From an uncultured Gammaproteobacteria bacterium (lineage in GTDB: Bacteria; Patescibacteriota; Microgenomatia; CAZXEC01): a DNA stretch of 61,248 nucleotides. The notes under the pieces were generated by a model that saw nothing but the letters and a program-made list of their open reading frames with translations, made no database searches and was not told the DNA's origin. The stretch's first letter is position 1. Every line of letters starts with the position of its first letter. The stretch spans positions 13,621 to 74,868 of the forward strand of contig CAZXEC010000002.1 in assembly GCA_964639595.1 (NCBI GenBank), given 5' to 3'. The translations under genes and the position numbers were made by a program. Of the stretch, positions 575 to 61,194 are shown one piece after another.

Positions 575-2203
575 ATGAACATTCTCAACCAGATCAAAAA
601 AGATCTAAATAGTGCTCTGGGGAAGTTAGGTTTAGAGAGTAATTTTTTAGATGTTAGCCGCCCCCAACTGGCCAAAAACGGCGACTACTCGACGAATATT
701 GCCTTCACTGCGTTTGAAAGGGGAAAGGGGAAAGGGGAAAGGGGAAAGGGAAGAAATCCATTAGACCTAGCTAAAGCAATTGCTAAACCCTTCACCCTTC
801 ACCCTTCACCGTATCTCAACCGCGTCGAGGTAGCCCCACCTGGTTTTATTAATTTTTTTGTCAAAAGCCAAGCCTGGCAGGAACAGGTAGCCCTGATACT
901 TAAAGCCCGGCATCAATATGGGTCAAGTAACTTGGGCCAGGGCAAACTGGCCAGGGTAGAGTTTGTGTCTGCCAATCCCACCGGGCCTTTGCATATCGGT
1001 AATGCCCGCGGCGGACCCTTGGGTGATGTATTGTGCAATATATTTGCCAAATCTGGCTGGCGGGTCATCAGAGAATATTTACACAATGATGTAGGCGGGC
1101 AAGTCAAGGCTCTTGGTAAGACCATCAAAGCCAGAATTGCCGGCACCGGCTCGACTGAAGACCAATACCAGGGTGAGTATGTTGCAGAACTGGCTCAAGC
1201 GCTCAAAGGTCAGGTGACAGGCAAAAGTGATGAGGAAGCAGGCAGGCTGGCGGTTGATGTGCTGTTTGGCCAGATTATATCAGACGTGTCTGACATGGGG
1301 ATTAGCTTTGATGAAATTTATGCCGAATCGGCGCTTAGGCAGGAAATACCGCGAGTTTTGGATAATTTGCAGCAAAAAGGGGTTGTCAAAAAGCAAGATG
1401 GAGCGTTGTGGTTTGCCCCGAGCGACGAATTTTTGCAAGACCGGGAAACTGTGGTGGTCAAATCTGACGGTGAATATACCTATTTTGCGGCGGATATTGT
1501 TTATCACCAAAAAAAATTTGCTTCAGGTGCCAGTTTGGTAGTTGATATCCTTGGGTCAAACCATAGCGGCCATGTGCCTCGTCTTCAGGCCGCTATCAAA
1601 GCTTTGGGCTATGATGTGTCTCAATTTCGAGTTATTTTGTATCAGTATGTTAGGGTAAAAAGGGGTTCTGATATAGTAAAGATGAGCAAAAGGGCCGGTA
1701 ATTTTATTACTGCCGGGGAGGTCTTAGCAGAAGTGGGACGGGACGCTTTTCGGTTTATGCTTTTATCCAGCGCTCCCGGCACCCATCTTGATTTTGATTT
1801 GGAGCTGGCTAAAAAACAATCGCAGGATAATCCGGTTTACTATGTGCAATACGCCCATGCCAGGATTTGCAGTATCCTGAAAAGAGCGGGAGAGCAGGAG
1901 AGCGGGAGAGCAAAGAGCAATCTAAGATTATTGTCGTATCCGGCGGAGTTGGCATTGATCAAAAAATTAACTGAATTTCCCGAACTGATTGAGGCGATTA
2001 CTGGCGACTTTATGGTCCATCATCTGACTACCTACGCCAGGGAACTGGCAGATTCATTTCATCACTTCTATGAAGCCTGCCAGGTTATAGATGAAGAGCA
2101 AAAAGAATTATCACAAGCCAGATTAAAGCTGGTTCTGGCGTGTCAAATTGTGCTGCAAGAAACTTTGAGGCTATTAGGAGTCTCTGCACCAGAAACAATG
2201 TAA
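575..2203 (+). CDS. argS: Arginine--tRNA ligase
   Basis: EFVSANPTGPLHIGNARG (HIGH-like), KMSKRAGN, YYVQYAHARICSIL; C-terminal GVSAPETM. Confidence 0.97.
   Translation: MNILNQIKKDLNSALGKLGLESNFLDVSRPQLAKNGDYSTNIAFTAFERGKGKGERGKGRNPLDLAKAIAKPFTLHPSPYLNRVEVAPPGFINFFVKSQAWQEQVALILKARHQYGSSNLGQGKLARVEFVSANPTGPLHIGNARGGPLGDVLCNIFAKSGWRVIREYLHNDVGGQVKALGKTIKARIAGTGSTEDQYQGEYVAELAQALKGQVTGKSDEEAGRLAVDVLFGQIISDVSDMGISFDEIYAESALRQEIPRVLDNLQQKGVVKKQDGALWFAPSDEFLQDRETVVVKSDGEYTYFAADIVYHQKKFASGASLVVDILGSNHSGHVPRLQAAIKALGYDVSQFRVILYQYVRVKRGSDIVKMSKRAGNFITAGEVLAEVGRDAFRFMLLSSAPGTHLDFDLELAKKQSQDNPVYYVQYAHARICSILKRAGEQESGRAKSNLRLLSYPAELALIKKLTEFPELIEAITGDFMVHHLTTYARELADSFHHFYEACQVIDEEQKELSQARLKLVLACQIVLQETLRLLGVSAPETM
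716..812. repeat. Paired heptamer tracts inside argS: (GAAAGGG)x5 and (TCACCCT)-like x4
   Basis: Five perfect units at 716-750; roughly complementary tract at 785-812; encode ERGKGKGERGKG and KPFTLHPSP. Confidence 0.9.
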
Positions 2204-2204
2204 T

Positions 2205-3251
2205 ATGGGCCGTCCGAGGAAATTCTCGATTAAGAAAAAAATTTTGAACCTGTTTTTATTGTTGGCACTGGTGGTGGCAGTGGTTTTTGGATATCTATAT
2301 TGGAAACATCCCCAACTGATCGTCCAGTTATCAACCCAGCCCAACCAAGTCTTACCCCAAATTCCCGGCTTGGTTAGCCAGGATTTGCAAGGAATCAAGG
2401 TTAGCGAGTTTGCTTTGAGCGGCTACACGGCCAGATTAACCGATTTGTTTTCCCGAGATCAAAGCCAGGCTAGCCAATCCGGCCTTGACCAAACCATGGG
2501 CTTGCAAACCAGCCAGCCAGCAGAGCCGAATGCCTCCGGTGGTTCACCATTGCTTTTTAAGTTTGCCTTGGTGGCTGATTCGCACTCGGAAAATGATTTG
2601 CTTGCTAAAGCCCTGAAGATGGCCAAAGCCGAGGCTGTCAGGTTCGTAATTGGCCTGGGAGATTATACTAAAACTGGCACAAAACAAGAACTGATCGACG
2701 CTAAACAAGTCTTTGATAAATCAAGCTTAAATTACTTTGTCATTCCAGGTGACCACGACTTATGGGACTCCCGCGATAAGGAACGACCAGATGCCACATA
2801 TAATTTTGAGACAGTATTTGGTAAGCCGTACCGGTCTTTTGCAGAAAAAGGAGTTAGGTTTATTATGCTTGATAACAGTGATAATTACTCTGGAGTATCA
2901 AATGAACAAATGGCGTGGCTAAAAAAAGAGCTGGAGAATCCTGCTCTCACCTTTGTTTTTACGCATGAACCACTGTATCATCCTGAATCAAAACATATCA
3001 TGGGGAGGGTTAACGAGGAATTATTGTCTCAAGCCAAGGAGTTGATGGAACTTTTTGGCAAAAACACCGTCAAAGAGGTCTTTTCCGGCGATATCCACTT
3101 TTTCGCCAGATTTACAGATCCTGTCTTTCATGTTAATATGACAACTATTGGGGCTGTTGCCTCACAAAGGAATATCCAGTCTTCCAGGTTTGCTTTGGTG
3201 TCAGTTTATGAGGACGGGACTCACCAGGTTGAAGATGTAGAGATAAAATAA
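2205..3251 (+). CDS. Membrane-anchored calcineurin-like metallophosphoesterase
   Basis: N-terminal TM; DSH, GDY, GDHD, HEP and GDIH metal-binding motifs. Confidence 0.88.
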   Translation: MGRPRKFSIKKKILNLFLLLALVVAVVFGYLYWKHPQLIVQLSTQPNQVLPQIPGLVSQDLQGIKVSEFALSGYTARLTDLFSRDQSQASQSGLDQTMGLQTSQPAEPNASGGSPLLFKFALVADSHSENDLLAKALKMAKAEAVRFVIGLGDYTKTGTKQELIDAKQVFDKSSLNYFVIPGDHDLWDSRDKERPDATYNFETVFGKPYRSFAEKGVRFIMLDNSDNYSGVSNEQMAWLKKELENPALTFVFTHEPLYHPESKHIMGRVNEELLSQAKELMELFGKNTVKEVFSGDIHFFARFTDPVFHVNMTTIGAVASQRNIQSSRFALVSVYEDGTHQVEDVEIK

Positions 3252-3369
3252 TGTAAAACTCAAATTCCAAAGCCCAAATGCCAAATGAAATCCAAAATCA
3301 AAAACGCACTAATTTGGTATTAAATCATTTGAACTTGATTTGGCATTGGGATTTTGACATTTATAATTT

Positions 3370-4653
3370 ATGTTCTCTTATAAAAAATCAGTACTTGACA
3401 ATGGCTTGAGAGTAATAACTGTGCCGCTGCCCAATAGTACCTCTACCACGGTGGGGATATTAGTGGGGGCAGGCTCGCGGTATGAAGAGCCAAGGATTAA
3501 CGGTTTATCGCATATCTTGGAGCATATGTTCTTCAAAGGCACCACCAAGCGCCCCACTGCCGCAGAAATTGCCAGGGAATCAGAGGGAATGGGGGCCATC
3601 CATAATGCCTGGACAGATGTGGAGGCAGTGGCTTACTGGATGAAGGTGCCGCCGCCCAATTTTGAGCACGGCTTGGAGATTTTATCAGACATGATAGCCG
3701 ACCCGCTGCTCAAAGCAGAAGAACTGGCCAAAGAACGGCACGTGGTGATTGAGGAATTCAACAGGGATGAGGATGACCATCCCAGGAAAGTGGCGGAGAT
3801 TTTCCAACAACTACTATGGCCAAACCAGGCCTTGGGACGGCCGATTATCGGTAATAAAAAGACTATTTTATCCGCCAGTCGGGATGATTTGATCAATTTT
3901 CGCCGTCAGCTTTATGTGGCTGGTAATATGGTGGTGGCAGTGGCTGGACCGGTTGAGCATGATCAGGTAGTTGAACAAGTAGAGAAAAATTTATCTGGTC
4001 TTACCACAAGCATGCCCCAATTAACTTGGGAAAGAGCTCAAGATAACCAAACAGGCCTCAAAGGATCCATCTTGGAGAAAAAATCAGAACAAGCCCATTT
4101 GATGTTAGGCTTAAAAACTTTTAGCTTTGATGATCACCGGCGACCGGTGTTGTCGGTCTTAAATTCTATTTTGGGGATAGGTATGAGCTCCAGATTATTT
4201 TTGTCAGTCAGGGAAAAAAAGCATTTGGCATATACCATCAGTTCTTCTGCCGATTATTTCCATGACACCGGAGCCTGGGGAGTTTATGCCGGTGTGACTT
4301 TAGACAGGCTGGCAGAAGCAGTGGGTGCTATTATGGAAGAGGTTAAGCTAATCAGCAAGGAGCTGGTTGGCAACAAAGAGCTGGCAGAAGCCAAAGAAAA
4401 GTTTAAAGGTCATTTCCTGTTTGGACTGGAAACCACCCACAGAATTATGGAATATTTTGGTAGGGAGGAGCTGCTGGAGGGTAAAATTAGTCTGCCTGAA
4501 GATAGATTGGCGCAAATTGAGCAGGTCACGGCCAACCAGGTCAGGCAACTGGCAAAGGAGATGTTTGTCAGAAAACAGCTCAATCTGGTAGTGCTGGGAC
4601 CATATCCTAGAAGTATGGCCAAGAAGCTAGACACCATCATAGAAATAGATTAG
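3370..4653 (+). CDS. M16 family zinc peptidase
   Basis: HILEHMFFKGT (HxxEH) and SSRLFLSVRE motifs. Confidence 0.93.
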   Translation: MFSYKKSVLDNGLRVITVPLPNSTSTTVGILVGAGSRYEEPRINGLSHILEHMFFKGTTKRPTAAEIARESEGMGAIHNAWTDVEAVAYWMKVPPPNFEHGLEILSDMIADPLLKAEELAKERHVVIEEFNRDEDDHPRKVAEIFQQLLWPNQALGRPIIGNKKTILSASRDDLINFRRQLYVAGNMVVAVAGPVEHDQVVEQVEKNLSGLTTSMPQLTWERAQDNQTGLKGSILEKKSEQAHLMLGLKTFSFDDHRRPVLSVLNSILGIGMSSRLFLSVREKKHLAYTISSSADYFHDTGAWGVYAGVTLDRLAEAVGAIMEEVKLISKELVGNKELAEAKEKFKGHFLFGLETTHRIMEYFGREELLEGKISLPEDRLAQIEQVTANQVRQLAKEMFVRKQLNLVVLGPYPRSMAKKLDTIIEID

Positions 4654-4668
4654 AATATCACCTAACGT

Positions 4669-6663: not shown

Positions 6664-6680
6664 CTATAGATAAATTTCAA

Positions 6681-6697
6681 ATCCGATTAAATCGGAT
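6681..6697. mobile_element. 17-bp palindrome, family A
   Basis: tcaa|ATCCGATTAAATCGGAT|tcaa. Confidence 0.8.
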
Positions 6698-6750
6698 TCA
6701 AATTACAAAACTCAAATGTCAAATGGATGTAATTTGTCATTTTTAGATAG

Positions 6751-7392: not shown

Positions 7393-7506
7393 AAAATGAT
7401 AAATTCCAAAACTCATCCATTCGGCAAGCTCAGGATGACCCTGAGTCTATCGAAGGGTCAAATGTCAAATGAATGCCAAAAGGCCAAATATTTTGACATT
7501 TGGATC

Positions 7507-8799
7507 TCATCTTAGGGAGATGGTGTAGAGATTTAGCGGTGTGCCGGCCGGTGCGTTGAAATTAGTTAAAATAATCAATCTTGACCCATTAGGCCAGGGG
7601 AAGGCCAGACTGGAAAACAGATTGCCTGAATAAATGGTAGTTTTGTTTTGTCCGTCTGCTTCAATGATGTCAATTTGTCCGTTCGACAAGCTCAGGACAG
7701 GTCCATTCGTCAAAACAGGTCCACTGCCTGCTTGCTGCGAGTCAATTAATATTAAATGATTGGAATCCGGTGATTCAGGCAGCCACCAAATATTTTTGGG
7801 CTTGATATTGAGAATATATTGTTTTTTCTCCTTTGTATCATAGATAACATAACCATCCCTGGTTTGATAAAAGAATTTATTTTCTCCCGGCGACCAGTGC
7901 AGGCCGTCTGGATAGTAAGATAGAGCGGGAGAGTCCCACTTCGCCGAGGCTTCGAGGGGCAGGCGGGAGAGCGGGAGTACTCCAGCTTTGGCAGAGGCAG
8001 TTGATTCAGGGGAAGTTTCCAGAGCCGCCAGAGCGGCTTTTTTGGAAGATTCATCAAGCCGGGAAGTTCTGGCTGATGCTTGCTGGATTAGTTCATCTTG
8101 CCACTCTTTGATAGTTTTGGATAATGTTAAGGTAGCGTCATTTGGCCTTTCATTGAGCCTGTCTGTGTCTAAGATATAATTCCTAACAAATTTTGATCCG
8201 GGCTGTTGATTTTCTTGTAGGGAAACCAATAAATTTTTTGAATCTGGCGCCCAGGTGATTTTAGCTTTAGAAAAGATGAGTGCTGGGGTATTTTTGATAA
8301 TTAGCTTGGGATCCGAAGGAGCAAGTAAGATTCTACCGTCTGATAGGTCTGCTACCCAGAGGCCGGCTTTCTCACCACTGTCTACTCCCCAGGCAATTTT
8401 AGTGCCACTAGGAGAAAGAACCGGGTTGATGGCTCCATTGAAAGTCATTGGTGATAAAGATGGGGCACGGGGGAAAAGCAGGGCCTCGACCTTGGTGACT
8501 AATTCTTTTTTGACTTCGATGGCCTTTTGATAATCAAAATAACCCTCTTTGGTTATTTTGACTGTGTAATTGCGTGGTTCCAGGTAGGATACAGTAGAAT
8601 CAGTGGCAGCTGTCAAATGCCCATCCAGCAAGACCGAGGCCCCATCGGGAATAGAGGAGACGACCAGTATACCTGTACCAGTGATGGCTCCAGTCTTTTG
8701 ACTGATAGTATAGCCTTTGGCAAGCAATATAGTGATAATTGCGCCAATCCCAATGATGGCCAAAGACAATAATGAAATAGCCACCCTGTATCTATTCAT
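7507..8799 (-). CDS. PEGA domain membrane-anchored protein with a beta-propeller-like C-terminus
   Basis: N-terminal TM; GILVVSSIPDGASVLLDG...YTVKITKEGY. Confidence 0.85.
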   Translation of the reverse strand: MNRYRVAISLLSLAIIGIGAIITILLAKGYTISQKTGAITGTGILVVSSIPDGASVLLDGHLTAATDSTVSYLEPRNYTVKITKEGYFDYQKAIEVKKELVTKVEALLFPRAPSLSPMTFNGAINPVLSPSGTKIAWGVDSGEKAGLWVADLSDGRILLAPSDPKLIIKNTPALIFSKAKITWAPDSKNLLVSLQENQQPGSKFVRNYILDTDRLNERPNDATLTLSKTIKEWQDELIQQASARTSRLDESSKKAALAALETSPESTASAKAGVLPLSRLPLEASAKWDSPALSYYPDGLHWSPGENKFFYQTRDGYVIYDTKEKKQYILNIKPKNIWWLPESPDSNHLILIDSQQAGSGPVLTNGPVLSLSNGQIDIIEADGQNKTTIYSGNLFSSLAFPWPNGSRLIILTNFNAPAGTPLNLYTISLR

Positions 8800-9973: not shown

Positions 9974-10086
9974 AGTTAATTTCAAATGTCAAAGCTCAAA
10001 TATCAAATCAAATTCAAAGCACAAAACCTTAAAGAATTTTGTCATTTAATATTTATTTGGCATTTAGATTTTGGAATTTGAATTTT

Positions 10087-11388
10087 ATGACAATCGGCAT
10101 TGACGCTTCAAGGGCTTTTTCAAATCAAAGAACCGGAACCGAGAATTACTCCTATGCTATAACTCGCGCCTTGGCAAAATTAGACCAAACTAACAGCTAC
10201 ATTCTTTTCGTCCGGGGTGGAGCAGACATTGACAGCCCAGCCACGCAAGGCGTCCCCTTGCGTGGCTGGCCGAAGAATTTCCGTTTTGTGGAAATTGGCT
10301 GGCCTCTCTTGTGGACGCAGGTGGGGCTGGCTTCGCAAACATTTGTCGAAAAATTGGATGTGCTATTTATTCCTGCTCATACTTTGCCGGTTGTCAGAAA
10401 ACCAGGATTGAAGACTGTAGTGACGATTCATGATTTAGGCGCAGAATATCTGGCTCAATACCACCAATTCCCCCATAAGTATTATCTGAACTTGGCCACA
10501 GGATACGCAGCAGCACACGCAGATGCCTTAATTGCCGTATCACAGGCCACCAAAAATGATTTAATAGAAAAGCTCAAGGTTAATGAGAAAAGAATTCATG
10601 TAATTTATGAAGGTTATGATAAGGAAAAGTTCAAAGTTCATGCTTCGACTGGTTCGACTACTTCGACTTCGTTCAGTACGGGTTCGCTCACCACAAGTTC
10701 GCTCAGGACAAGAAGTTCAAAGTTCAAAACTGATGCACAAGTTAATACTTTGAAGCGTTTTGATATACAAAAGTCGTATTTATTGTTTGTGGGGACAGTT
10801 CAACCCAGAAAAAATTTAGTCAGACTGATTGAAGCCTTCTCACGAATGGTAAATTCTGATTCTTTAATCCTTAATCCTTCATCATTTATCATTCGCGATT
10901 TATCCTTAGTTATTGTTGGTTCAAAGGGTTGGTTGGCAGATGATATTTATCAGGCGCCAGCCAAATATGGGGTGGCCAGTCGTGTAAAATTTTTAGGGCA
11001 TGTGGATGACGTTTACTTACCGGCTTTGTATTCAGGAGCCAAAGCATTAGTTTTCCCGTCCCTGTATGAAGGCTTTGGCTTGCCAATATTGGAAGCTATG
11101 GCGGTAGGTTGTCCGGTTTTGACTTCTGGGATTTCATCTATGCCGGAAGTAGCAGAGGATGCGGCTTTGTATGTGAATCCTTACGATATAGAAAATATCA
11201 CAAGTGGACTGATTGATATATTAGATAGGAACAAGGGTCAAGAGTTAAGGGTGAAGGGACTGGAACAGGTGAAGAAATTTAGCTGGGAAAAAGCGGCTAG
11301 AGCAACACTGAAGGTACTTGAGGATGTATTTAAAAATCAAAATGCAGGTAAAAATTCAAAATTTCAACCTTTGAATTTTAAATTATGA
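10087..11388 (+). CDS. GT4 glycosyltransferase carrying several repeat-derived insertions
   Basis: LFVGTVQPRKN, VFPSLYEGFGLPILEAMA; inserts PATQGVPLRGW, ASTGSTTSTSFSTGSLTTSSLR, SLILNPSSFII. Confidence 0.92.
   Translation: MTIGIDASRAFSNQRTGTENYSYAITRALAKLDQTNSYILFVRGGADIDSPATQGVPLRGWPKNFRFVEIGWPLLWTQVGLASQTFVEKLDVLFIPAHTLPVVRKPGLKTVVTIHDLGAEYLAQYHQFPHKYYLNLATGYAAAHADALIAVSQATKNDLIEKLKVNEKRIHVIYEGYDKEKFKVHASTGSTTSTSFSTGSLTTSSLRTRSSKFKTDAQVNTLKRFDIQKSYLLFVGTVQPRKNLVRLIEAFSRMVNSDSLILNPSSFIIRDLSLVIVGSKGWLADDIYQAPAKYGVASRVKFLGHVDDVYLPALYSGAKALVFPSLYEGFGLPILEAMAVGCPVLTSGISSMPEVAEDAALYVNPYDIENITSGLIDILDRNKGQELRVKGLEQVKKFSWEKAARATLKVLEDVFKNQNAGKNSKFQPLNFKL
10237..10269. repeat. Palindrome CCAGCCACGCAAGG-CGTCC-CCTTGCGTGGCTGG (family D) inside the GT4 CDS
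   Basis: Near-identical copy at 22983-23011. Confidence 0.85.
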
Positions 11389-12236
11389 AAGTAGATATTT
11401 TAGGTATTAATATTGATAATCTCACCATGGATGAGACTATGGATCGGGTGGTTACCATGGTCAAAGACGGTCAAAAGCATTATGTAGTGACGCCTAACCC
11501 GGAAATAGTCATGGCTGCTCAAAAGGATCGCGAGCTAATGCGGATTATTAACCAAGCCAGTTTGGCAATTGCCGATGGAATAGGCCTGGTATGGGCCAGC
11601 AGAATACTTTATAAGGGTAAAGCGTTTAGGGACAAGGGACAAGCAAGACTGGATCATAATATTACTAAACCGCATACCCTTAACCCTTTACGCTTTCGAG
11701 TTACTGGCATTGATTTAATGGAAAAGTTGTGCGAGAAAGCCAGTGATCTGGGCTTTACAATAGGATTATTAGGTGGCGGTAGCAAAATAGCAGATAGATG
11801 TGCCCAAGTGCTAAAAAAAAGATACCCCAAACTCAAAATCAGCTTTGTTTATGATGGAAATGGTGGCAAAGAGGGTGATAAGGATATAATCAAGCGTTTA
11901 AGGGAAAGCGTTAAGGGAAAGGGTGCAAGCAGTCTTGACGCTTCACGCTTAACACTTCATCCTATTGATATTTTGTTTGTGGCTTTTGGTTTTCCTAAGC
12001 AGGAAAAATGGATGGCTAGGAATTTGGATCGCCTGCCGGTCAAGGTAGCCATGGGTGTAGGGGGAGCTTTTGATGTGATTGCCGGTAAAGTCAAAAGAGC
12101 GCCGCAAATTATTCAGAAGTTAGGCTTGGAATGGTTGTGGCGCCTGGTGCGCCAGCCATGGCGATGGAAGAGGCAATTGGCACTGCTCAAATTCATATCG
12201 GCAGTGTTAAAAAAGAGATCTTTGTTGCGGGCTTGA
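11385..12236 (+). CDS. WecB/TagA/CpsF family glycosyltransferase
   Basis: VVTPNPE, ADGIG, RVTGIDL, FVAFGFPKQEKW, MGVGGAFDV; heptamer-derived inserts. Confidence 0.93.
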   Translation: MKVDILGINIDNLTMDETMDRVVTMVKDGQKHYVVTPNPEIVMAAQKDRELMRIINQASLAIADGIGLVWASRILYKGKAFRDKGQARLDHNITKPHTLNPLRFRVTGIDLMEKLCEKASDLGFTIGLLGGGSKIADRCAQVLKKRYPKLKISFVYDGNGGKEGDKDIIKRLRESVKGKGASSLDASRLTLHPIDILFVAFGFPKQEKWMARNLDRLPVKVAMGVGGAFDVIAGKVKRAPQIIQKLGLEWLWRLVRQPWRWKRQLALLKFISAVLKKRSLLRA

Positions 12237-12417
12237 CACATTCGATGACAAGCCCCAATGTTTATCATTGGGGAATCAGAGTCGCAAGCCCGAAGGGCTT
12301 GTCGCTCAGTGTCTGCGGCCGGAATATAAATAAACAAGCTCCATGATTGGCATCGGAGCTACATTCGCCCTTGACAACAAGCAAACAGATGCTAGAATGT
12401 AACCAGTTGTAACCAAT

Positions 12418-18435: not shown

Positions 18436-18511
18436 AATTCACCTCCTTTTCAAGGGGTAAGGGTAAAAGGGGTAAGGGTGAAGAAAATTAAAGTTCTTTA
18501 CCCTTAACGCT

Positions 18512-19045
18512 TCACGCTTTCCGCTTTGAGATTGCTTGTAAAGTTAATACTAATTGTCTTTGGTTCCATTGCAAGGCGGCAAGCAGTCTATATAGGGGAG
18601 CGGCCATAGTTTGGACAACTTGGGCTTGCAAAACTTCTCGGGAAGGCAGAAGAGCCAATTCTATAATTTTTTGAGCCCCGCGCAAGACTTGGTTGAAAAA
18701 TCCGCCTTTTATGATAGGAAGTCCGCTCACCTTGGCAAAATTAGCCAGCGCTTTCAAGGGAGTAATTTCATCTTGATAGGCCAAGAGAACAGCTGTTGGG
18801 CCTTCCAGGGAAAAAGGTAAATGTTCTTTACCCTTGACGCCCAACACCCTTGAAAGCGCTTTTTTCAGTAGAGTATTTTTGATAACGGTAAATTCGGCAT
18901 CCGTGTCTTTGAGCTTTTTTCTAAGCCCTGTTAACTGGACAGTATTTAAGCCTTTATAGTCGGCAAAAACTAAACTCTTGGCTCGGGAGAGTTTTGCTTC
19001 GATAGACTCTACTATCTGTTGTTTTTGAGCTTTAGTTCTTGGCAT
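18512..19045 (-). CDS. rplJ: 50S ribosomal protein L10
   Basis: DYKGL, VIKNTLLKKAL, LEGPTA; heptamer-derived insert RVLGVKGKE. Confidence 0.95.
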   Translation of the reverse strand: MPRTKAQKQQIVESIEAKLSRAKSLVFADYKGLNTVQLTGLRKKLKDTDAEFTVIKNTLLKKALSRVLGVKGKEHLPFSLEGPTAVLLAYQDEITPLKALANFAKVSGLPIIKGGFFNQVLRGAQKIIELALLPSREVLQAQVVQTMAAPLYRLLAALQWNQRQLVLTLQAISKRKA

Positions 19046-19147
19046 TTACAACTCCTTATACCAAGGAGTTATTAGGGGAAAGGGGAAAGCGACAAGGGTG
19101 AAGAAAACTAACCTGGCCCTTTTATGCTTTTCGCCAAACACTGCTAA

Positions 19148-27381: not shown

Positions 27382-29274
27382 TTAATTTTTCTTTCTGGTT
27401 GCGGCATAGGCTATTCCAATAACCATCCAAAAGGTGACGGAATAGTCATTCTTAAAATACAAAGTATCAATAGTGGAATGAACCATAAAAGCAATTAGGG
27501 CGGCAGCTAAAACTAAGCTGACTGCTGACCCCGATTTGATCCCGATTGAATCGGGATTGATCGGGGCTGACTGCTGACTGCTGACTGCTTTTTGCCAGAA
27601 TATCAATAAGATCAACAGAAATCCCACGAAGCCTAAAATACCCAACTGCAGCCACCAGTCCAGATAGGTGTTATGCGACAATAGGGGAGTTTGCTCCGGC
27701 ACCCAGTCCGGTACATACTGCCCATAAACCGGGGTGAAATTAGCCAAGCCGACACCAAAAAACGGCTGGTCGCGGATTACATTTATGGCAGTTTGATACA
27801 TGCCAATCCTGGTTACCAAGGAGCTATGTTGTGATACCAAGTTGGCAAAACGTGGTCCTTGCCAAAACAGGATGGCGCTGGCAGCAAGGCCAATTATTAC
27901 AAAAGCGGATGTTAGCAGTCTTGTTGGCGGATTGATGATCTTAATCAGTAAGAATAATGCTGCGGCAGCCAAGCCCAACAGGGTGCCTAAGGATGAAGTT
28001 AGAATGATAGTGAGCATTAGGGCGCTAAACGAGCCAAACAGTAAAGCGTAAAGCGTAAAGCGTAAAGCGTAATTATCTTGACGCTTGAAAATTAAGTAAC
28101 ATAGCAGGCCGGCACAGAAGATTAAGCCGTATTGCAAATAGGAAGCCAAATAATTAGGGTTGCCGAAAAAAGACGGGGACAGAGTCAAAGTAAAGTCAAC
28201 AAAGCCGTCACCGCCCAGGTATTGCCACAGAGACCAAATGGCAATTACGGTGGCGGATATGGTGTATGTGGCTAGCATTCTCCAGACCATTTTTGTTTTG
28301 TCTTGAACTTGATCGGAAGCTAGCAGCAGGGCGGCATAAAATAAAATGGGATCGATGACAAAAGCCTTGGCCCAACCCAGGGCTTCGGTTTTGTTAGGAC
28401 TAGTCGATATTCCTATTATCGTTCCAGCTAAAATTAAAAAAATAGACAAATTCATGATCTTGTGTTGAAAGATACGGAAGCTGGAGAAATTAGTAGAAAT
28501 TGACCGCCAGAAGACCAGGAGGATGGCTACTTCCAATAGGGTAGAAGGAATGCCAACAACATAAAATCGAACCAGAAAAGTGGGCAAAAAGAGTGGAATT
28601 AAAATGATGCTCCAAGTAAGATTGGTCAAACTAAGGTAGAAAAAGATGGCAATTAGTGTGGCCAAAATGGCCAGTTGGGCTGTGTCAAAGACATATTGTT
28701 GCGGCAGATAATTGGCAAATTGGGCAATCGGCACAATGCCGGAAACTTCCTGCTCATGGTCAGAAAACTGTTGGGTTCTGACCTGTCCCGGAGCAACTGT
28801 CAATTGGTGTTTTTCCAGCTCTGTCAACTGTTCTTGAGATAGATAGCCTTTCTTGCCCAAATTTTGCTTGTCCCAAAACAGTGTAGCGGGAATGTGGTAT
28901 TTTTTAATAATAGGCAGGGCGCCAGTCGCGATTTCTTCGTAGCCGTCCCTAAAAGTAACAAGAACTGCACGGGCAGGGGCAGGTGATTCTCCAGCAGTAA
29001 TTTTTTGATATGTTGCTATATCTATAATCTCATATTGATTGCTTTTGAGATAGTTAATTTGTTGGTCAAAATGAGCCGGCGCTACATGGCGATAACGGGT
29101 AGAAAAATCAGCATTTTGGTCAACGTCCCGGATCAATCCATAGGATAAGATTGTAATTTGACTGACATGGCGGACGTTCAATAGTTTTTTAATCGGCGGC
29201 AGTTGATTGGCCCAGCCTGATAATAGAAAAAAAAGTAATCCCACCAGGCCAGATAGAGCCAGCTTTTTTATCAC
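27382..29274 (-). CDS. Fusion of a degenerate polysaccharide-deacetylase-like domain and an O-antigen ligase-like (Wzy_C) domain
   Basis: VLVTFRDGY and PATLF, then ~11 TM, FGNPNYLA, R-x3-Y, PFFGVGLANF, HNTYL. Confidence 0.82.
   Translation of the reverse strand: MIKKLALSGLVGLLFFLLSGWANQLPPIKKLLNVRHVSQITILSYGLIRDVDQNADFSTRYRHVAPAHFDQQINYLKSNQYEIIDIATYQKITAGESPAPARAVLVTFRDGYEEIATGALPIIKKYHIPATLFWDKQNLGKKGYLSQEQLTELEKHQLTVAPGQVRTQQFSDHEQEVSGIVPIAQFANYLPQQYVFDTAQLAILATLIAIFFYLSLTNLTWSIILIPLFLPTFLVRFYVVGIPSTLLEVAILLVFWRSISTNFSSFRIFQHKIMNLSIFLILAGTIIGISTSPNKTEALGWAKAFVIDPILFYAALLLASDQVQDKTKMVWRMLATYTISATVIAIWSLWQYLGGDGFVDFTLTLSPSFFGNPNYLASYLQYGLIFCAGLLCYLIFKRQDNYALRFTLYALLFGSFSALMLTIILTSSLGTLLGLAAAALFLLIKIINPPTRLLTSAFVIIGLAASAILFWQGPRFANLVSQHSSLVTRIGMYQTAINVIRDQPFFGVGLANFTPVYGQYVPDWVPEQTPLLSHNTYLDWWLQLGILGFVGFLLILLIFWQKAVSSQQSAPINPDSIGIKSGSAVSLVLAAALIAFMVHSTIDTLYFKNDYSVTFWMVIGIAYAATRKKN
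27529..27566. mobile_element. Nested double family A palindrome inside the CDS (42 bp, in frame)
   Basis: ctga|CCCCGAT ttga|TCCCGATTGAATCGGGA|ttga TCGGGG|ctga. Confidence 0.9.
28042..28069. repeat. (TAAAGCG)x4 heptamer tract inside the CDS
   Basis: Four perfect units; encodes YALRFTLYAL. Confidence 0.9.
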
Positions 29275-33893: not shown

Positions 33894-33898
33894 ATTTG

Positions 33899-33971: not shown

Positions 33972-33993
33972 GCATGCCTTAACTAAACTCATT

Positions 33994-44509: not shown

Positions 44510-44510
44510 A

Positions 44511-49542: not shown

Positions 49543-49679
49543 GATCGTAGTTTTACACCTTAGCCGTAAAAAATCAAGATACGGCGTCATTGACAAGAGA
49601 CATGTTTAACTTTATGTTGTTTAATAAGGTATGTTTTGGCGGACGCTGCCGACTAACTATTTTACAAGCTAAGAGTTGA

Positions 49680-54903: not shown

Positions 54904-55521
54904 TTAAAAAGAGAAACCAAAAAGCAAAAGTTGGATGGTTTGAGCCAGCGGAATAATGGTGGAATAGAGCAGGCTGGGAAAAAGAAAAACCAGGGCCAGC
55001 AGGATGATAAATCCGTACTGTTCCATGGCGTCAATGACCGGAGCCAATCCCGGAAACACCCCGGCAAAGAATTTTGATCCGTCCAGCGGGGGAATGGGGA
55101 TCAGGTTAAAAACCGCCAGGTTGATGTTAATAAGAGCTACGATAAACAAGGGAGTAAGCGGTAAGGGGAAAGGGGCAAGAGGAGCGGCCAGTCTCAATAA
55201 GACGGCAATAAGGGCTGCCGTGACTAGGTTGGCAGCTGGTCCGGCTATGGAAATCAGCGCCGAATCTTTTTGCGGTTCCCGCAGGTTATAGGGGTCAAAC
55301 TGGACCGGCTTGCCCCAACCAAAGCGGGCCACCACAATCATCAGTGTACCAATCGGGTCAAGATGGGACAGCGGGTTTAAGGTCAGCCTGCCTTGCAAGC
55401 GGGGAGTGGGATCACCCAAGCGGTCGGCAACGAAAGCATGAGCGGCTTCATGAACAGTGATGGCCACCACTAAACCCAAGGCCAGAGCCAATATTTCTTC
55501 AATGCTGGAAAAAGGGAACAT
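54904..55521 (-). CDS. Site-2 protease (M50 family)
   Basis: HEAAH, AGPAAN, FNLIPIPPLDG. Confidence 0.94.
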   Translation of the reverse strand: MFPFSSIEEILALALGLVVAITVHEAAHAFVADRLGDPTPRLQGRLTLNPLSHLDPIGTLMIVVARFGWGKPVQFDPYNLREPQKDSALISIAGPAANLVTAALIAVLLRLAAPLAPFPLPLTPLFIVALININLAVFNLIPIPPLDGSKFFAGVFPGLAPVIDAMEQYGFIILLALVFLFPSLLYSTIIPLAQTIQLLLFGFSF

Positions 55522-57366: not shown

Positions 57367-57369
57367 TTT

Positions 57370-57858
57370 ATGATGGAAAGTTTTGGCAGAGATGCCCTTT
57401 TGGGTTTAGTGCCCTTGCCGGAAAAAGGAAAGCGGGACTATCTGATAGTGTCAGCCACTTTTGGTTTTGACGATCTAATCAGCAACCCCAAAATAGTGAA
57501 ACTGCGCAGTTTGATGTGGGAGCATTTACGCCTCAAAGGCGAATCAAGACCAATGGGTCAGGGGGCCATGCTGGTTTTTTATGACCGCCAGACTAAAAAA
57601 CTATTACATGTGTGTTTGGGCCGCGCCATCGGCGAGGATGACACTGGGCACCGGGCTTGGTTGGGTTTGCGCTACAGTCCGAAAGACAGCCCTTTGGTGC
57701 AGGTTGACTCTTGGCCAGTGGCTTATTCTGTGGTGAAAGAGCAAATTCCCGCTGATCATTTAGTGACTGGCCGGCCGGTGATGGCTGACGGACAAGAGTT
57801 CCTTCAGCAAATTCGCGAGCTGTTTCAGATTACTGATCAGTTGTTGGCGGGTGAGTAG
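57370..57858 (+). CDS. Hypothetical protein
   Basis: 162-aa ORF directly after the P-loop gene. Confidence 0.6.
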   Translation: MMESFGRDALLGLVPLPEKGKRDYLIVSATFGFDDLISNPKIVKLRSLMWEHLRLKGESRPMGQGAMLVFYDRQTKKLLHVCLGRAIGEDDTGHRAWLGLRYSPKDSPLVQVDSWPVAYSVVKEQIPADHLVTGRPVMADGQEFLQQIRELFQITDQLLAGE

Positions 57859-58256
57859 AAGTTGACAAATAATTTACCAATCACTGCTGCCAAACGAGGA
57901 TAGCCGTTGATCAATGCCCTATAATCCATCGGCTTTTTCCCTTCAATCTGGATCATTTTACCCGGCAAAAATTTAATAATTTTGCTGACAGCTTGCGGCT
58001 GACTGCTGACGGCTATTTTACTCCAAACTCCTGGCCAGGGATAATATGCCCGAATCATTCGCTCAAATCTATCCGATGATGGCAGATTAGCTAAATCAAC
58101 AAAACCATCTTCGCGCGTCAGAATTTTTGTAAAAGTTGCTTGCTGGTGGTCTTGTTCATGGGGAGGCAAGAAAAGCTTAATGCTGACCCCGATTTGATCC
58201 CGATTCAATCGGGATTGATCGGGGCTGACCGCTAACTGCCGTTTGCCGTGAGCCAT
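57837..58256 (-). CDS. fmt: Methionyl-tRNA formyltransferase, C-terminal part (separate frame)
   Basis: QDHQQATFTKILTREDG, IRAYYPWPGVW, IQIEGKKPM. Confidence 0.85.
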   Translation of the reverse strand: MAHGKRQLAVSPDQSRLNRDQIGVSIKLFLPPHEQDHQQATFTKILTREDGFVDLANLPSSDRFERMIRAYYPWPGVWSKIAVSSQPQAVSKIIKFLPGKMIQIEGKKPMDYRALINGYPRLAAVIGKLFVNFYSPANN

Positions 58257-58887
58257 TTTTTGCCCATTTGATATATTTTGGTATTGTTTGAACTAGTAAA
58301 TCTGTACCTAACTTGGCCATTTTTTGCGATAGTGATAAAAAAGTATCGTTAGGATCAATCGGTAGAGTAGCTTGAGAGAGTATTTGTCCATGGTCCATCT
58401 CCGCATCCATCAGCATAATAGTAACACCGGTTTCTTTTTCACCTTCCAATATGGCAGATTGGATAGGCGAGGCGCCGCGATACTTGGGCAAGAGCGACCC
58501 ATGGACATTAATATTACCTAACTTGGGGATGTCCAAAATCACTTGGGGAATAATTTTGCCATAAGAAGCAACAACTGAAAGGGTAAAGGGTAAAGCGGAA
58601 AGTGTAGAAACAAACTCCGGGTCCTTTAATTTTGATGGCTTAAGTAGTGTTATGTTATATTTTGATGCTGTTCTGGCAACAGCTGATGGTTGGGGAAGAG
58701 AATTTTTGCCGATTGGTTTATCAGGTCTGGTGACAACTAGTTGGGGAGCGTCGCCGGCTTTGATCAAGCCTTCTAGGATTGTTGCTCCAAACTCGGGAGT
58801 GCCAAAAAAGACGATATTTAAGTCATTAGCTAGTTGGTCATTTGTCACCGATTGTTTATTTGAATCCGATTTAATCTGATTTGACAT
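58177..58887 (-). CDS. fmt: Methionyl-tRNA formyltransferase, N-terminal part
   Basis: FFGTPEF, VVTRPDKP, NVHGSLLPKYRGASPIQ, MDAEMDHG. Confidence 0.93.
   Translation of the reverse strand: MSNQIKSDSNKQSVTNDQLANDLNIVFFGTPEFGATILEGLIKAGDAPQLVVTRPDKPIGKNSLPQPSAVARTASKYNITLLKPSKLKDPEFVSTLSALPFTLSVVASYGKIIPQVILDIPKLGNINVHGSLLPKYRGASPIQSAILEGEKETGVTIMLMDAEMDHGQILSQATLPIDPNDTFLSLSQKMAKLGTDLLVQTIPKYIKWAKNGSRQTAVSGQPRSIPIESGSNRGQH
58187..58224. mobile_element. Nested double family A palindrome in the fmt linker
   Basis: ctga|CCCCGAT ttga|TCCCGATTCAATCGGGA|ttga TCGGGG|ctga. Confidence 0.9.
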
Positions 58888-58933
58888 TTTGATTTTGGAT
58901 TTAATTTAATATTAGGATTTTGACATTTGAAAT

Positions 58934-59467
58934 TTATATTACAGGGTATTCAACTTTGGCCAGCTTATCTTTGCCGTCTTTGTCACGGCCAACAACTTTT
59001 AATAACTCTCCTTTTTGCTCAATCACCCTGTCCACAAACAGCTTAGCGTTAATATGATCAAGCTCATGTTGGAAAATACGAGCAGCCAAGCCTTTATAAG
59101 TCCTTTTAATAGTTTTCCCATGCCTGTTCTGGGCTCTGATGGAGACTTGGGCAGGGCGGGCCACCTGTCCATACATTGATGGTACTGACAAGCATCCTTC
59201 ATAGGCGACTGCTAATTTATCTGAAGATGAAGTAATTTCCGGATTGACAAAGGCAGTCAGATGTTGGCCGAACTTAAGCAGAAAAATCCGATCGGTCTGG
59301 CCAATTTGGTTGGAAGCAATGCCGACACCGGGCACTTTGGATGTCTTGAGAGCCTTTTCCAAATCAACAATTTTTGCCAGGGTCTGCTGGTTAATTTTGC
59401 CAACCGGTTTAGCTACAGTGCGAATTGCCGGATGATGAAAGTCAACAATAGAAACTTTTTTGGCCAT
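58934..59467 (-). CDS. def: Peptide deformylase
   Basis: GVGIASNQIG, EGCLSVP, QHELDH; start reassigned to MAKK. Confidence 0.95.
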   Translation of the reverse strand: MAKKVSIVDFHHPAIRTVAKPVGKINQQTLAKIVDLEKALKTSKVPGVGIASNQIGQTDRIFLLKFGQHLTAFVNPEITSSSDKLAVAYEGCLSVPSMYGQVARPAQVSIRAQNRHGKTIKRTYKGLAARIFQHELDHINAKLFVDRVIEQKGELLKVVGRDKDGKDKLAKVEYPVI

Positions 59468-59484
59468 AGCTATTTCGAGCTGTA

Positions 59485-59568
59485 ATATCCCGCTTCTGCG
59501 GGAATGCAAGCGAGAATCAAACTTTTCCGCTTGCGGAATACCTCGTAGCTTGCTACGAGGTAGTTTAT
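59485..59568. mobile_element. IS200/IS605-like hairpin element
   Basis: TACCTCGTAG-CTTG-CTACGAGGTA followed by GTTTAT; sister of 17549-17580. Confidence 0.55.
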
Positions 59569-60341
59569 TTGGCAATTATGACTCTTCCTTTCTCCAGTTT
59601 GATTTTTTTATGACCCAGGAGATTTAAGACTTCCGCGCCTAATTGGTCTTCCAACCGGTTCATTTTGGCCCGCAGGCTGTCCACGGTTTCTGCTGGTGCA
59701 ATTTTAACCCATTGCCTGGTAATGACCGGCCCGATATCATAGCCATCGGCAGTAATAAAATGAATGGTGGCTCCAGTGTGAGAAACCCCGCTGGATAGAA
59801 TTTCCGCAGCAATCTGGTCCCAGGCGCCGCGAAACACCGGTGATTTAGTGCCATCGGGGAGAGTGAGTTGGTTTTGGTCTTCATCCATATCTGGCAGATA
59901 AGCCGGGTGGACGTTGATAACCTGGCTGGGGAAAAATTGCAGGAACTCGCGGTGCAATACCAAATCCCAGCCGGTCATAAAGATAAAATCCGGATTGTAT
60001 GTTTCCTGCTTCAGAAAAGACCCCAGAGCCAATTCCCAGTCTTTTTTATACTGTTCTTCATCCAAATTAGGTGAGGTTAGTTTGACTTGCTTGACCATTT
60101 GTACCCGGTTCCAATAAATAGCGCCAAAACCTAACTTTTTAGCAAGCTCCACGCCGACCACGTCAATTTTGCCTTCCGGCGGTTTGCGGTGGGAAACAAC
60201 TAGCTTTAGATCTAAGTTAGAAGCACGGGCAGTGACGGCTTTGTACAGGGCCGGTGTACGTGAGCCGCGGCCAATTAGCAGTACCAGGCTGACTTTGCCA
60301 ATTCCCCCCTTTTCTACTTTAGCATGTTTTGTTTCGGTCAT
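59565..60341 (-). CDS. PurN-like formyltransferase
   Basis: LIGRGSR, LVVSH, TGWDLVL, INVHPAYLP, GATIHF, DIGPVI. Confidence 0.8.
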   Translation of the reverse strand: MTETKHAKVEKGGIGKVSLVLLIGRGSRTPALYKAVTARASNLDLKLVVSHRKPPEGKIDVVGVELAKKLGFGAIYWNRVQMVKQVKLTSPNLDEEQYKKDWELALGSFLKQETYNPDFIFMTGWDLVLHREFLQFFPSQVINVHPAYLPDMDEDQNQLTLPDGTKSPVFRGAWDQIAAEILSSGVSHTGATIHFITADGYDIGPVITRQWVKIAPAETVDSLRAKMNRLEDQLGAEVLNLLGHKKIKLEKGRVIIAK

Positions 60342-60402
60342 GCTTCAAATTGTAGCAAAAAATAAAATTGATGGCAATTGGAGAATTTTGGTAGTCCAAA
60401 GA

Positions 60403-61194
60403 TTATTTCGACCAGGCAGCCAGCTTTTCCCGAGCTAATTGGTCATTAGTATCAATATATGTCAAAATATATCGTAATTGATCAAGAGCGGCTGGGGTTT
60501 GGTCGGTTTCATACAAGTGGTCAGCCAGGCCCAGGCGGGCATCGCGCCAGTTAGGTTTTAAGGCTACAGTTTTTTTAAACAAGTCAATTGACTGTACTTT
60601 TTCTCCGGTAGTCCACAAGAATCGGGCATAGTTATAGTAAGTTTTAGCATCAGTCGGCGCCAGTTGGATGGTCTTTTTGTAGACTTGTCCGGCTTCTTGT
60701 AAATAAGCCGGATCAAGGTCTGACAAGTTGATATAGACGTTGATCAGATTTTTTTGATAGTTGAGGCTGTTAGGGCTGGTAGTGGTGGCTTTGTTTGCTT
60801 CTGATAAAGCCAAAATTTCCAGTTGCGCCGACAGAGAAGATTCTTTGACTTCGGAAGCTAAGGCCGAGGCAGTGTATGCCAGTTCCGAATGATAGAAAGG
60901 CTCCAGGGGATTGAGCTGGACTGCTTCCAGAAGATGCTCAAAACTTTTAGTTAAATCTCCCGCGCGGGAGGAGCTATAGCCGGTATTAAAGTTATTATCT
61001 GCCCACCATGCCCGCCATAAGGCGAAAAAAGATAAGAGATAAAAGATAAGGACAAGTAAGATAGCTGCTATCTGCCGGTAGCTTAAGGGTGAAGGGTCAA
61101 GGGTGAAGGATAAGGCATTTTTTTCCTGCCTTTCCCCTTGCTTGTCCCGCGAAGCCTTAGCGTAGTAGGAACCCTTACCGCTGACCCCGATCAA
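60403..61194 (-). CDS. TM plus TPR C-terminal part of a membrane protein (5' part outside the window or disrupted)
   Basis: TM, then TPR-like EAVQLNP, IQLAPTD, ALKPNW. Confidence 0.75.
   Translation of the reverse strand: MIGVSGKGSYYAKASRDKQGERQEKNALSFTLDPSPLSYRQIAAILLVLIFYLLSFFALWRAWWADNNFNTGYSSSRAGDLTKSFEHLLEAVQLNPLEPFYHSELAYTASALASEVKESSLSAQLEILALSEANKATTTSPNSLNYQKNLINVYINLSDLDPAYLQEAGQVYKKTIQLAPTDAKTYYNYARFLWTTGEKVQSIDLFKKTVALKPNWRDARLGLADHLYETDQTPAALDQLRYILTYIDTNDQLAREKLAAWSK

Follow-up and report, generated by a model that had tools for sequence, protein, structure and literature searches.

Period-7 arrays and a 15-nt palindrome as dispersed repeats in and between the genes of a Daviesbacteria-like groundwater bacterium

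The stretch of DNA analysed here, referred to below as the window, comprises 61,248 nt of contig CAZXEC010000002.1 (positions 13,621 to 74,868; assembly GCA_964639595.1), and our subject is the set of short repeats, many of them built of 7-nt units, that lie in and between its genes. Pfam searches support genes for ArgS, a GT4 glycosyltransferase, WecG/TagA, the ribosomal proteins L7/L12, L10 and L1, Fmt, and a tetratricopeptide-repeat (TPR) protein. The gene that an earlier note on this DNA had called a ligase (27382-29274, minus strand) is no DNA ligase gene: its product is a membrane protein of the O-antigen ligase/Wzy_C type that also has a deacetylase domain. Since ArgS, WecG, and Fmt find their best matches in Candidatus Daviesbacteria, Microgenomates, and Patescibacteria, the host is, as judged by homology, a member of the Candidate Phyla Radiation (CPR), namely a Daviesbacteria-like Microgenomates bacterium of groundwater, and a cyanobacterium is excluded. 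Two studies contributed the five groundwater metagenome runs in which the window is present.

In the 61 kb of this genome that were analysed, there are 19 exact period-7 tracts of two or more copies, where dinucleotide-preserving shuffles of the window lead one to expect 3.4, and four of three or more copies, where the shuffles have none; the corresponding counts are 2 against 0.7 for period 8 and 1 against 0.15 for period 9. The same picture emerges from a baseline drawn from diverse bacteria, mostly of unrelated phyla, and comprising 1.21 Mb of loci obtained by a contig scan with an ArgS alignment. Here the density of period-7 tracts is 31 per 100 kb in the window and 8.6 in the baseline at two or more copies, and 8.2 and 0.74 (11 times) at 2.5 or more, with all other periods at the baseline level. 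The excess specific to period 7 that the earlier note had proposed is therefore borne out by both comparisons, without an excess at periods 8 and 9. AAGGG is not singled out by global k-mer enrichment in the window, and the signal is one of 7-nt spacing, not of word frequency. About 16 of 21 period-7 tracts lie inside open reading frames (ORFs).

Tandem Repeats Finder (TRF) recovered the tracts previously listed for argS, wecG, the ligase gene, fmt, and the TPR region, and the listed intergenic pairs are also present (Table 1, rows starting at 3243, 7457, 9975, and 58845), with TRF calls near 3261, 7457, 10055, and 58858. Two other entries fell away: the supposed rplJ tract (~18825-18860) is not tandem but a single arm of a long-range hairpin, and that in rplA (~22300) is a degenerate GTCAGC-like stretch without a TRF tandem call, in a gene for which Pfam indicates no net insertion in the L1 domain.

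It had also been stated that the units differ in sequence and share only their period. At least four unrelated families (NAAGSGN, NCAAATN, NGTCAGC, and AAAGTTC) do so, but most coding tracts belong to a single one. This dominant family A is the degenerate heptamer NAAG(G/C)GN together with its complement, with a core of AAGGG or AAGCG ((GTAAAGC)n being the AAGCG variant), and it usually forms pairs of inverted arms, typically on either side of a short stretch of resident DNA; when up to two mismatches are allowed, its pattern AAGGGNNAAGGGNNAAGGG is found 22 times, at about 11 loci, where chance predicts 0.18. Family B (NCAAATN/NATTTGN) is AT-rich and makes up intergenic hairpins, which nearly fill the spacers in which they lie. 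Its arms often include TTGACA, and one right arm carries a strong sigma-70-like site, TTGGCA-16-TATAAT (3340-3367; 11/12) just upstream of an M16 peptidase gene. Family C consists of NGTCAGC arrays that flank the palindrome described below. The array families share a conserved pentamer followed by two variable bases (AAGGG+NN, CAAAT+NN, and TCAGC+NG), and paired family-A arms form 5-bp helices with 2-nt mismatches between them. Solo family-A arrays are all G-rich on the plus strand, and in pairs the G-rich arm always comes first on that strand regardless of gene orientation; this polarity is tied to the chromosome, not to transcription.

A second component, of which the earlier note made no mention, is a palindromic, apparently mobile element nested in the tracts. 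The 15-nt palindrome CCCGATT-N-AATCGGG (CCCGATTNAATCGGG) occurs at 13 loci in the window, where 0.21 are expected, and seven of the 13 copies are inside ORFs. It often lies within (NGTCAGC)n arrays. In 10 of the 13 copies the hexamer on the left flank recurs as a direct repeat on the right flank with at least 5/6 identity, as it does in 16 of 23 when copies from a close relative and two metagenome contigs are added (null 0.010; binomial p about 3e-27). These flanking repeats, of 5-6 nt, vary from site to site (GTTGGC, GTTGAC, TTCAAA, GCCGAC, TTGAT, and TCAGC), and variable direct flanks of this kind are, in sequence terms, the signature of target-site duplication. Palindrome and duplication together measure 21 nt, and each insertion adds 21 nt because the 15-nt element carries a direct repeat of 5-6 nt. 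What appeared in the O-antigen ligase gene, in fmt, and near the TPR gene as a core of 36-38 nt is a nested insertion, CCCCGATTTGAT|CCCGATTNAATCGGG|ATTGAT|CGGGG, with one copy within the loop of another (38 nt in full). When the elements were folded as single-stranded DNA and compared with shuffles, palindrome cores gave z-scores of -5.0 to -8.2 and the second WecG element -3.35. A metagenome scan for the exact nested composite with GCTGAC flanks returned no copy, the small palindrome alone being found elsewhere, and no insertion sequence with terminal inverted repeats matching the palindrome is present in the window.

Turnover of these elements was followed in a relative represented by three syntenic contigs of one other run (L001, L082, and L103), with genomes about 80% and proteins about 75-92% identical. 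Over 13.9 kb of alignment there are 46 indels, 27 of them of at least 6 nt; among the latter the commonest length is 21 nt (five cases), one is of 35 nt, and by our count about 17 of the 27 fall within repeat families. Insertions within genes are all multiples of three (21, 51, 66, 72, and 87 nt) except that in the Fmt linker, and are thus filtered by frame; as the earlier note had reasoned, 7k nt remain in frame only when k is a multiple of three. Both genomes have some elements in common, namely the second WecG element, the hairpin in L10, and the array at 11232 in GT4, and turnover therefore spans the time of their divergence. Others differ entirely: the rplL-rplJ spacer is filled by family A in the window and by unrelated family B in the relative. 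The metallophosphatase gene on L001 holds a 51-nt in-frame palindrome of 8-mers found only in the relative, and the empty site in the window is a short quasi-palindrome whose flanks the relative's arms copy. The same unit, AGAGCRGG, forms the 8-mer array in the window's argS, and the relative has a palindrome insertion in that argS loop (1883-1912).

The earlier note held that tracts expand inside genes. This is true of WecG, which gains 22 and 17 aa, but in argS the net gain over the relative is only +12 and +6 nt, in L10 +4 aa, in a loop, and at fmt 58578 zero. The first WecG element is a clean insertion of 22 aa (66 nt) relative to solved TagA structures; its central 20 nt are present in both genomes, whereas the heptamer arms are found only in the window, the left adding 21 nt and the right overwriting the resident sequence without a gap. 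In argS, the first two tracts lie 36 nt apart on either side of a conserved helix, both at variable-loop positions in the orthologue alignment; their sites are wholly diverged in the relative, which has a single AAAGGGT there, between flanks that are 85-90% identical. That they form a complementary pair, as had been claimed, is correct insofar as both tracts are present, but only 5/7 positions per unit are complementary. In L10, a segment of the variable loop is a perfect 14-nt complement of a conserved segment 80 nt away, the relative's version being degenerate; the conserved arm differs from the relative at synonymous sites only, and those sites match the loop arm. Several tracts overwrite resident sequence at constant length, a pattern suggestive of templated copying.

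Orthologue alignments show the encoded peptides to be derived rather than ancestral, and as expected by the earlier note they are found in loops: variable loops in ArgS and L10, the linker between domains in Fmt, and the two WecG sites, where orthologues have a connector of 5-8 aa (site 1) and a hypervariable loop (site 2). The AlphaFold model of WecG has a mean predicted local distance difference test (pLDDT) score of 88, with values below 53 and coil exactly at both inserts, which are accordingly predicted to be disordered.

The most drastic case is fmt (57837-58887, minus strand), in which the earlier note had seen only tracts (~58000 and ~58580); both are recovered by TRF, but the gene is also split into two overlapping ORFs, one encoding a catalytic domain of 236 aa and the other a C-terminal domain of 139 aa with its own ATG at 58256. 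ORF A corresponds to residues 3-187, and residues 31-90 of ORF B match E. coli Fmt 192-247. The split results from a net gain of 37 nt in the linker over the relative's intact gene, which breaks the frame; all relatives examined have a single full-length Fmt, and unitigs of four runs from two studies show 0 differences over the core and its flanks. The family-A array in the catalytic domain (58578-58606) aligns without gaps to unrelated sequence in the relative, its length unchanged. At three fmt sites the palindrome is present in one genome and absent from the other: two 21-nt insertions are found only in the relative, and the nested core only in the window. A second Formyl_trans_N protein (59565-60341, minus strand; 258 aa) is encoded directly upstream of def-fmt and is conserved in the other genome as well; it may stand in for the broken fmt or act on another substrate.

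The metagenomes indicate that the tract sequences are dispersed beyond these loci. Independently assembled contigs of the runs end at tracts, and word depth climbs at the same places, reaching 182-397 at the fmt core against 17-30 in its surroundings and up to 545 at the argS tracts against 20-38. The 31-mers of the tracts are multi-copy, with depths raised up to 10-20 fold, and the same strings recur on further contigs of similar depth, including a compact (GAAAGGG)n-TA-(CCCTTCA)n. On two contigs of one JGI sample, L097 (Ga0315288_10000063) and L089 (Ga0315288_10000654), the 15-nt palindrome lies within (GATTTTT)n heptamer tracts, and period-7 counts are raised (7 in 14.7 kb and 4 in 13.6 kb, respectively).

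Table 1. Repeat features of the window, in order of position (a dot marks features without a strand).
Position	Strand	Feature	Basis
716..750	+	(GAAAGGG)x5, family A, argS N-terminal domain; encodes ERGKGKGERGKG, variable loop	TRF
787..810	+	(ACCCTTC)x3.4, argS; approximate complement of 716..750; encodes PFTLHPSP	TRF
1883..1912	+	8-mer array AGAGCRGG x3.8, variable argS loop	TRF
3243..3381	.	Family-B hairpin (NCAAATN / NATTTGN arms), intergenic	
6676..6745	.	Palindrome TCCGATTAAATCGGA with TTCAAA direct flanks, beside CAAATGT heptamers, intergenic	
7457..7510	.	Family-B hairpin, intergenic, convergent genes on either side	
9975..10090	.	Family-B hairpin, intergenic, upstream of GT4 gene	
10626..10728	+	Window-specific 87-nt insertion (29 aa, S/T-rich), GT4; direct repeat AAGTTCAAAGTTCA (two heptamers) at both ends	
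11232..11258	+	Family-A array, CAAGGGT-like x3.9, GT4; same in relative	
11612..11700	+	WecG element 1: family-A arms, resident 20-nt centre	TRF row 11628-11696
11888..11965	+	WecG element 2: family-A hairpin, about +17 aa (51 nt) relative to TagA; also in relative	TRF, 11892-11959 (row 11934-11959)
18448..18520	.	Family-A hairpin filling rplL-rplJ spacer	z -5.3
18747..18860	-	Long-range hairpin in rplJ: perfect pairing of arm AGCGCTTTCAAGGG (loop) and arm CCCTTGAAAGCGCT (conserved region)	dG -30.6, z -6.8
19073..19100	+	Solo family-A array upstream of rplJ	
27525..27589	-	O-antigen ligase, in-frame composite (72 nt): (GCAGTCA)n, then nested palindrome CCCCGATCAATCCCGATTCAATCGGGATCAAATCGGGG, then GTCAGCAGTCAGC	TRF (GCTGACT)x3.4 at 27566-27589
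28041..28072	-	(GTAAAGC)x4.6, AAGCG variant of family A, O-antigen ligase	TRF
30605..30619	.	15-nt palindrome with GTTGGC direct flanks (6/6), in ORF 29379-30665	
55150..55181	+	Solo family-A array in ORF 54904-55521 (minus)	
57984..58014	-	(NGTCAGC)x4 array, Fmt C-terminal domain; 21-nt palindrome insertion here in relative	TRF
58177..58262	-	Composite (degenerate heptamers and nested palindrome), Fmt inter-domain linker; frame break	
58578..58606	-	Family-A array AAAGGGT x4.1, Fmt catalytic domain	TRF
58845..58945	.	Palindrome AATCCGATTTAATCTGATT and family-B heptamers at the fmt 5' end and in the def-fmt spacer; window-specific 21-nt indel	
61083..61160	.	Family-A hairpin, 5' end or N-terminal tail of TPR gene	TRF row 61085-61109
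61176..61230	.	Nested palindrome variant, GCTGAC on both sides	
Starts 5425, 34976, 36891, 37431, 42510, 49681, 50428, 51398		Further palindrome copies	

Taken together, we consider it probable that this lineage harbours its own population of dispersed repeats, very short and hairpin-forming, of which the tracts are what can be seen, and in which the palindrome behaves as a minute mobile element. Arrays would grow by replication slippage in 7-nt steps, the complementary arm would be written by intrastrand template switching, and the palindrome would spread by hairpin-dependent single-strand transposition or copying. Selection would act only as a filter on frame, stop codons, and loop tolerance, and the elements would be selfish or neutral rather than adaptive. 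Template switching is proposed as the cause of the inverted pairs that flank conserved codons, of the gap-free overwrites, and of the synonymous pattern in L10. According to published work, switching of template between the arms of an imperfect inverted repeat makes the arms more alike and longer, alters coding sequence, and gives rise to hairpins (PMC13100816, PMC8604942, PMC8794818).

An enzyme of a class that might mobilise such hairpins is encoded in the window. The gene at 30725-31396 (minus strand) resembles the REP-associated tyrosine transposases (RAYTs; REP, repetitive extragenic palindrome) of the HUH/Y1 class, with the motifs PNHFHLLL and YIHLNP and a match to Pfam Y1_Tnp (E 1.4e-8), while its score against the NCBIfam model "REP-associated tyrosine transposase" (45.7 bits) is under the cutoff of 80. 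It is flanked by identical perfect 21-nt hairpins ATTCCACCTCGAAGGTGGAAT (30681-30701 and 31437-31457) and is single-copy by depth, its HUH-motif region being common to many related genes of the community. A RAYT-like paralogue with 46% identity is found in the relative (L103 1153-1725); its site is not orthologous, and its flanking hairpin is CACCCC(A/T)GGGGTG. The two genes show that the lineage possesses this class of enzyme and that it is mobile there. As a demonstrated driver, the window's RAYT-like gene was rejected, since its flanking hairpin has two copies in the window and low depth, and it is retained only as a candidate enzyme class.

A number of observations weigh against a population of mobile hairpins. 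No transposase is tied to the palindrome, since both RAYT-like genes, in the window and in the relative's contigs, are flanked by other hairpins; moreover, Y1/IS200-type enzymes to our knowledge classically make no target duplication. Family-A arrays have neither palindrome core nor target duplication, and their spread rests on inference. Complementarity between the arms of pairs reaches only about 70-80%, folding is no better than in shuffles for the argS pair (z -1.4), and the same holds for AT-rich intergenic pairs (z -0.25 and -1.2). The gain of 37 nt in fmt decomposes ambiguously (49-12 or 42-5), and the strand polarity concerns about 11 loci in one window. The comparative data amount to about 27 kb of a single relative, with gains and losses that lack outgroup polarity. 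Finally, no heterogeneity in tract length or between filled and empty sites was seen in the five runs, for which assembled contigs hide minor variants and break at tracts.

The best surviving alternative, which we regard as unlikely, is pure slippage at simple sequence repeats (SSRs), whereby a polymerase with a preferred 7-nt step would amplify any local seed, and inverted pairs and dispersal would be incidental. It agrees with the specificity for period 7 across several unrelated units, with the single AAAGGGT of the relative where argS in the window has five copies, and with the 8-mer palindrome on L001, which consists of copies of its own flanks. An excess of heptamer SSRs is, moreover, described in PMC4692102, citing Mrazek 2007, as known in many prokaryotes and ascribed to the polymerase footprint. 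It does not account for same-length replacement or for coordinated complementary arms around resident sequence, nor does it predict one dominant degenerate unit, identical strings of at least 31 nt at many loci, or a palindrome with flanks like target duplications; the lack of length polymorphism among the five runs is a weak test against it. Slippage alone is inadequate because several tracts replace resident sequence at unchanged length. The earlier note had favoured a generator specific for period and not for sequence; the first half of this stands, but recurring near-identical strings and same-length replacements speak against the second. Sequence-specific copying or mobility counts at least as much as purely period-specific slippage, because one degenerate family, multi-copy 31-mers, and near-identical strings recur across genes and genomes.

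A bolder version of the mobile-hairpin reading, which we consider rather improbable, would make the heptamer arrays themselves products of the hairpin element's own transposition cycle. If a hot-spot pentamer were targeted again and again, with insertion and imprecise excision leaving a 5-nt duplication and a 2-nt footprint, period-7 arrays of any sequence would result. If true, the heptamer excess seen in cyanobacteria (of the short tandemly repeated repetitive [STRR] type), in Xanthomonas, and in further bacteria would have a mechanism, and the element, at 15-16 nt and able to live inside essential genes, would represent the smallest class of mobile DNA known.

About equally improbable is that the hairpins and G-rich arrays are kept by selection as terminators, mRNA stabilisers, promoters, G-quadruplexes, or protein-binding arrays. 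Nearly filled spacers, a promoter-like site in a family-B arm, very stable hairpins, and consistent strand polarity are what such functions would lead one to expect, and (GAAAGGG)5 matches the quadruplex pattern G3+N1-7, similar G-rich heptamers forming quadruplexes in vitro (PMC4692102). However, the rplL-rplJ spacers of two close relatives hold unrelated families, elements in coding loops come and go between relatives, and AT-rich pairs fold like shuffles. Terminator-like structures in the window show no excess (24 against 21), and an Rfam scan gave no matching family.

That the tracts are contingency loci, in which gain or loss of 7 nt would phase-switch genes for surface polysaccharides (GT4, WecG, O-antigen ligase, and TPR), we hold to be very unlikely. 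A 7-nt unit does shift the frame, and Haemophilus provides a known case of phase variation by heptanucleotides (PMC2651432, PMC8262952). In addition, the O-antigen ligase gene holds the longest perfect tracts found outside argS, and several host genes encode cell-envelope glycosyltransferases. Against this, the same repeats occur in argS, rplJ, fmt, and intergenic spacers, the arrays are mostly imperfect and are placed in internal loops, not at 5' ends, the only frame-shifted gene, fmt, is no surface gene, and one sequence is seen in five runs of two studies (in contigs that drop minor variants). Mis-assembly of repeats or mis-binning in a metagenome-assembled genome is largely refuted and scarcely credible: k-mer assemblies do break at tracts, and tracts beyond k-mer length cannot be sized from unitigs, but the unitigs of four runs agree across fmt, the elements of nearly all genes are in frame, and the same kinds of element occupy other sites in a relative from a different run.

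Among known systems, the STRR repeats of filamentous, heterocystous cyanobacteria, to which the earlier note had appealed, offer an analogy only, the host being a CPR bacterium and the canonical units being absent. These units were reportedly given by Mazel et al. in 1990 as STRR1 CCCCA(A/G)T, STRR2 TT(G/T)GTCA, and STRR3 CAACAGT. Tandem copies of the STRR heptamers, or of those of Nostoc (GGGGAYT) and Xanthomonas (GGGAATC), do not occur in the window, save one STRR2-like doublet at 58834. The resemblance is that tandem heptamers are found at many loci, and repeats of the STRR type likewise have several unit families per genome, some stem-loop inverted pairs, and rapid change between close relatives (PMC4692102). 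By contrast, they are mainly intergenic, whereas the window's tracts are mostly coding (including argS, rplJ, and fmt), degenerate (five conserved and two variable positions), and tied to a mobile palindrome.

In the account of PMC10969869 (citing Ogata 2000 and 2002), Rickettsia palindromic elements (RPEs) are selfish in-frame palindromes in unrelated or essential genes, with peptides compatible with folding. The window resembles them in its in-frame palindromic inserts in unrelated ORFs (WecG, 66 and 51 nt; O-antigen ligase, 72; L001 metallophosphatase, 51; and the relative's fmt, 21 nt twice), at surface or disordered loops (WecG, the Fmt linker, ArgS, and L10). Unlike RPEs, which are about 100-150 bp and encode conserved peptide families, the units measure 15-95 nt, with heptamer periodicity, a 21-nt quantum, and flanks like target duplications; they belong to a different phylum and encode short recurrent peptides (KGK/GKG, FTLxP, and APIxSG) without a long conserved ORF.

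With REPs, their hairpin-forming doublets (REPINs), and RAYTs, the window shares a high density of short imperfect palindromes, doublets and nesting, and RAYT-like genes with their own hairpins. However, REPs, which are 20-40 nt long, are extragenic by definition, and over half of the palindrome copies here are inside ORFs; the GTAG/CGTC end tag of REPs (PMC3733652) is replaced by variable direct repeats of 5-6 nt; and the abundant palindrome borders no RAYT-like gene seen in the window or in the relative. MITEs, the transposable elements of the miniature inverted-repeat type, provide a parallel in target-site duplications that vary among copies and in the filled and empty sites of fmt. Elhai et al. 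reportedly described in 2008 the small dispersed repeats (SDRs) of Nostoc punctiforme, which are said to be 21-27 nt long, dispersed, apparently mobile, sometimes hairpin-forming, and nested, in heptamer-rich genomes; being cyanobacterial, they are said to be unrelated in sequence to the repeats here.

Quasi-palindrome mutagenesis by template switching, with its perfected inverted repeats and same-length multinucleotide replacements, matches L10, the first WecG element, and fmt 58578, and it acts in coding sequence with replacements at constant length (PMC8604942, PMC13100816, PMC8794818, PMC7202029). It is, however, a general mutational mechanism and not an element family, and alone gives neither a 7-nt period nor the dispersal of strings. 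The window's repeats behave as a blend of STRR-type SSRs, RPEs, hairpins of the REP/REPIN or MITE type, and the SDRs of Nostoc, in which defining features of STRR, RPE, and REP are each lacking. We found no reports of such repeats in CPR bacteria in the literature searched.

CPR genomes are tiny and streamlined, and little room for selfish DNA is assumed in them. Short repeats nevertheless reach genes for an aminoacyl-tRNA synthetase, a ribosomal protein, and initiator formylation in such a genome. A 15-nt palindrome with a fixed footprint of 21 nt (seven codons) would, if true, be among the smallest mobile elements described, and its survival in coding sequence would be explained by a footprint that automatically preserves the frame. 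Heptamer arrays, inverted pairs, and nested palindromes outside cyanobacteria also provide an independent system for the question of the 7-nt unit, open since STRR and the 2007 SSR surveys. New disordered loops in conserved enzymes are raw material for protein innovation, and the repeats break metagenome assemblies at predictable spots.

Several further features of the two genomes deserve mention. Two window-specific insertions consist of clustered hairpins: one of 138 nt (12232-12370) is intergenic after wecG, and one of 95 nt (59475-59570) lies between the Formyl_trans_N paralogue and def, whose ORF seems 36 aa longer. The latter coincides with a depth spike (256 against 30) and is therefore a multi-copy repeat of another family. 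A short GCTCAGGATGACCCTGAGTCTATCGAAGGGTC-like repeat is common to both genomes but occupies different intergenic spacers (window 7420-7455; L082 ~7900-7935). At 13972-15393 and L082 3551-4951, a phosphoglucomutase/phosphomannomutase gene occupies the same syntenic slot with 30% identity, between neighbours of 76-92%, which looks, from these identities, like non-orthologous gene replacement.

An ORF of 881 aa (37332-39977, plus strand) is extremely acidic (rich in E, T, G, and D), with nested periods of 12, 18, 24, 36, and 96 nt; it has no Pfam match, supplies most of the non-heptamer rows in the tandem-repeat table, and lies opposite an antisense ORF (37190-40516, minus strand) with an equally long open frame. 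The region 43604-49596 (minus strand) holds nine small, tightly packed or overlapping ORFs (172-319 aa), with negative GC skew and without family-A arrays, and a 236-aa ORF over the tRNA-Tyr and tRNA-Thr genes (33282-33992, minus strand) is probably spurious. Among the ribosomal-protein genes, three unrelated genes separate rplK-rplA from rplJ-rplL. L1 (21895-22827, minus strand) carries a lysine-rich N-terminal extension of ~110 aa, its L1 domain starting at residue 120 and the relative's protein being long as well, and NusG (24956-25696, minus strand) has an N-terminal extension of ~75 aa.

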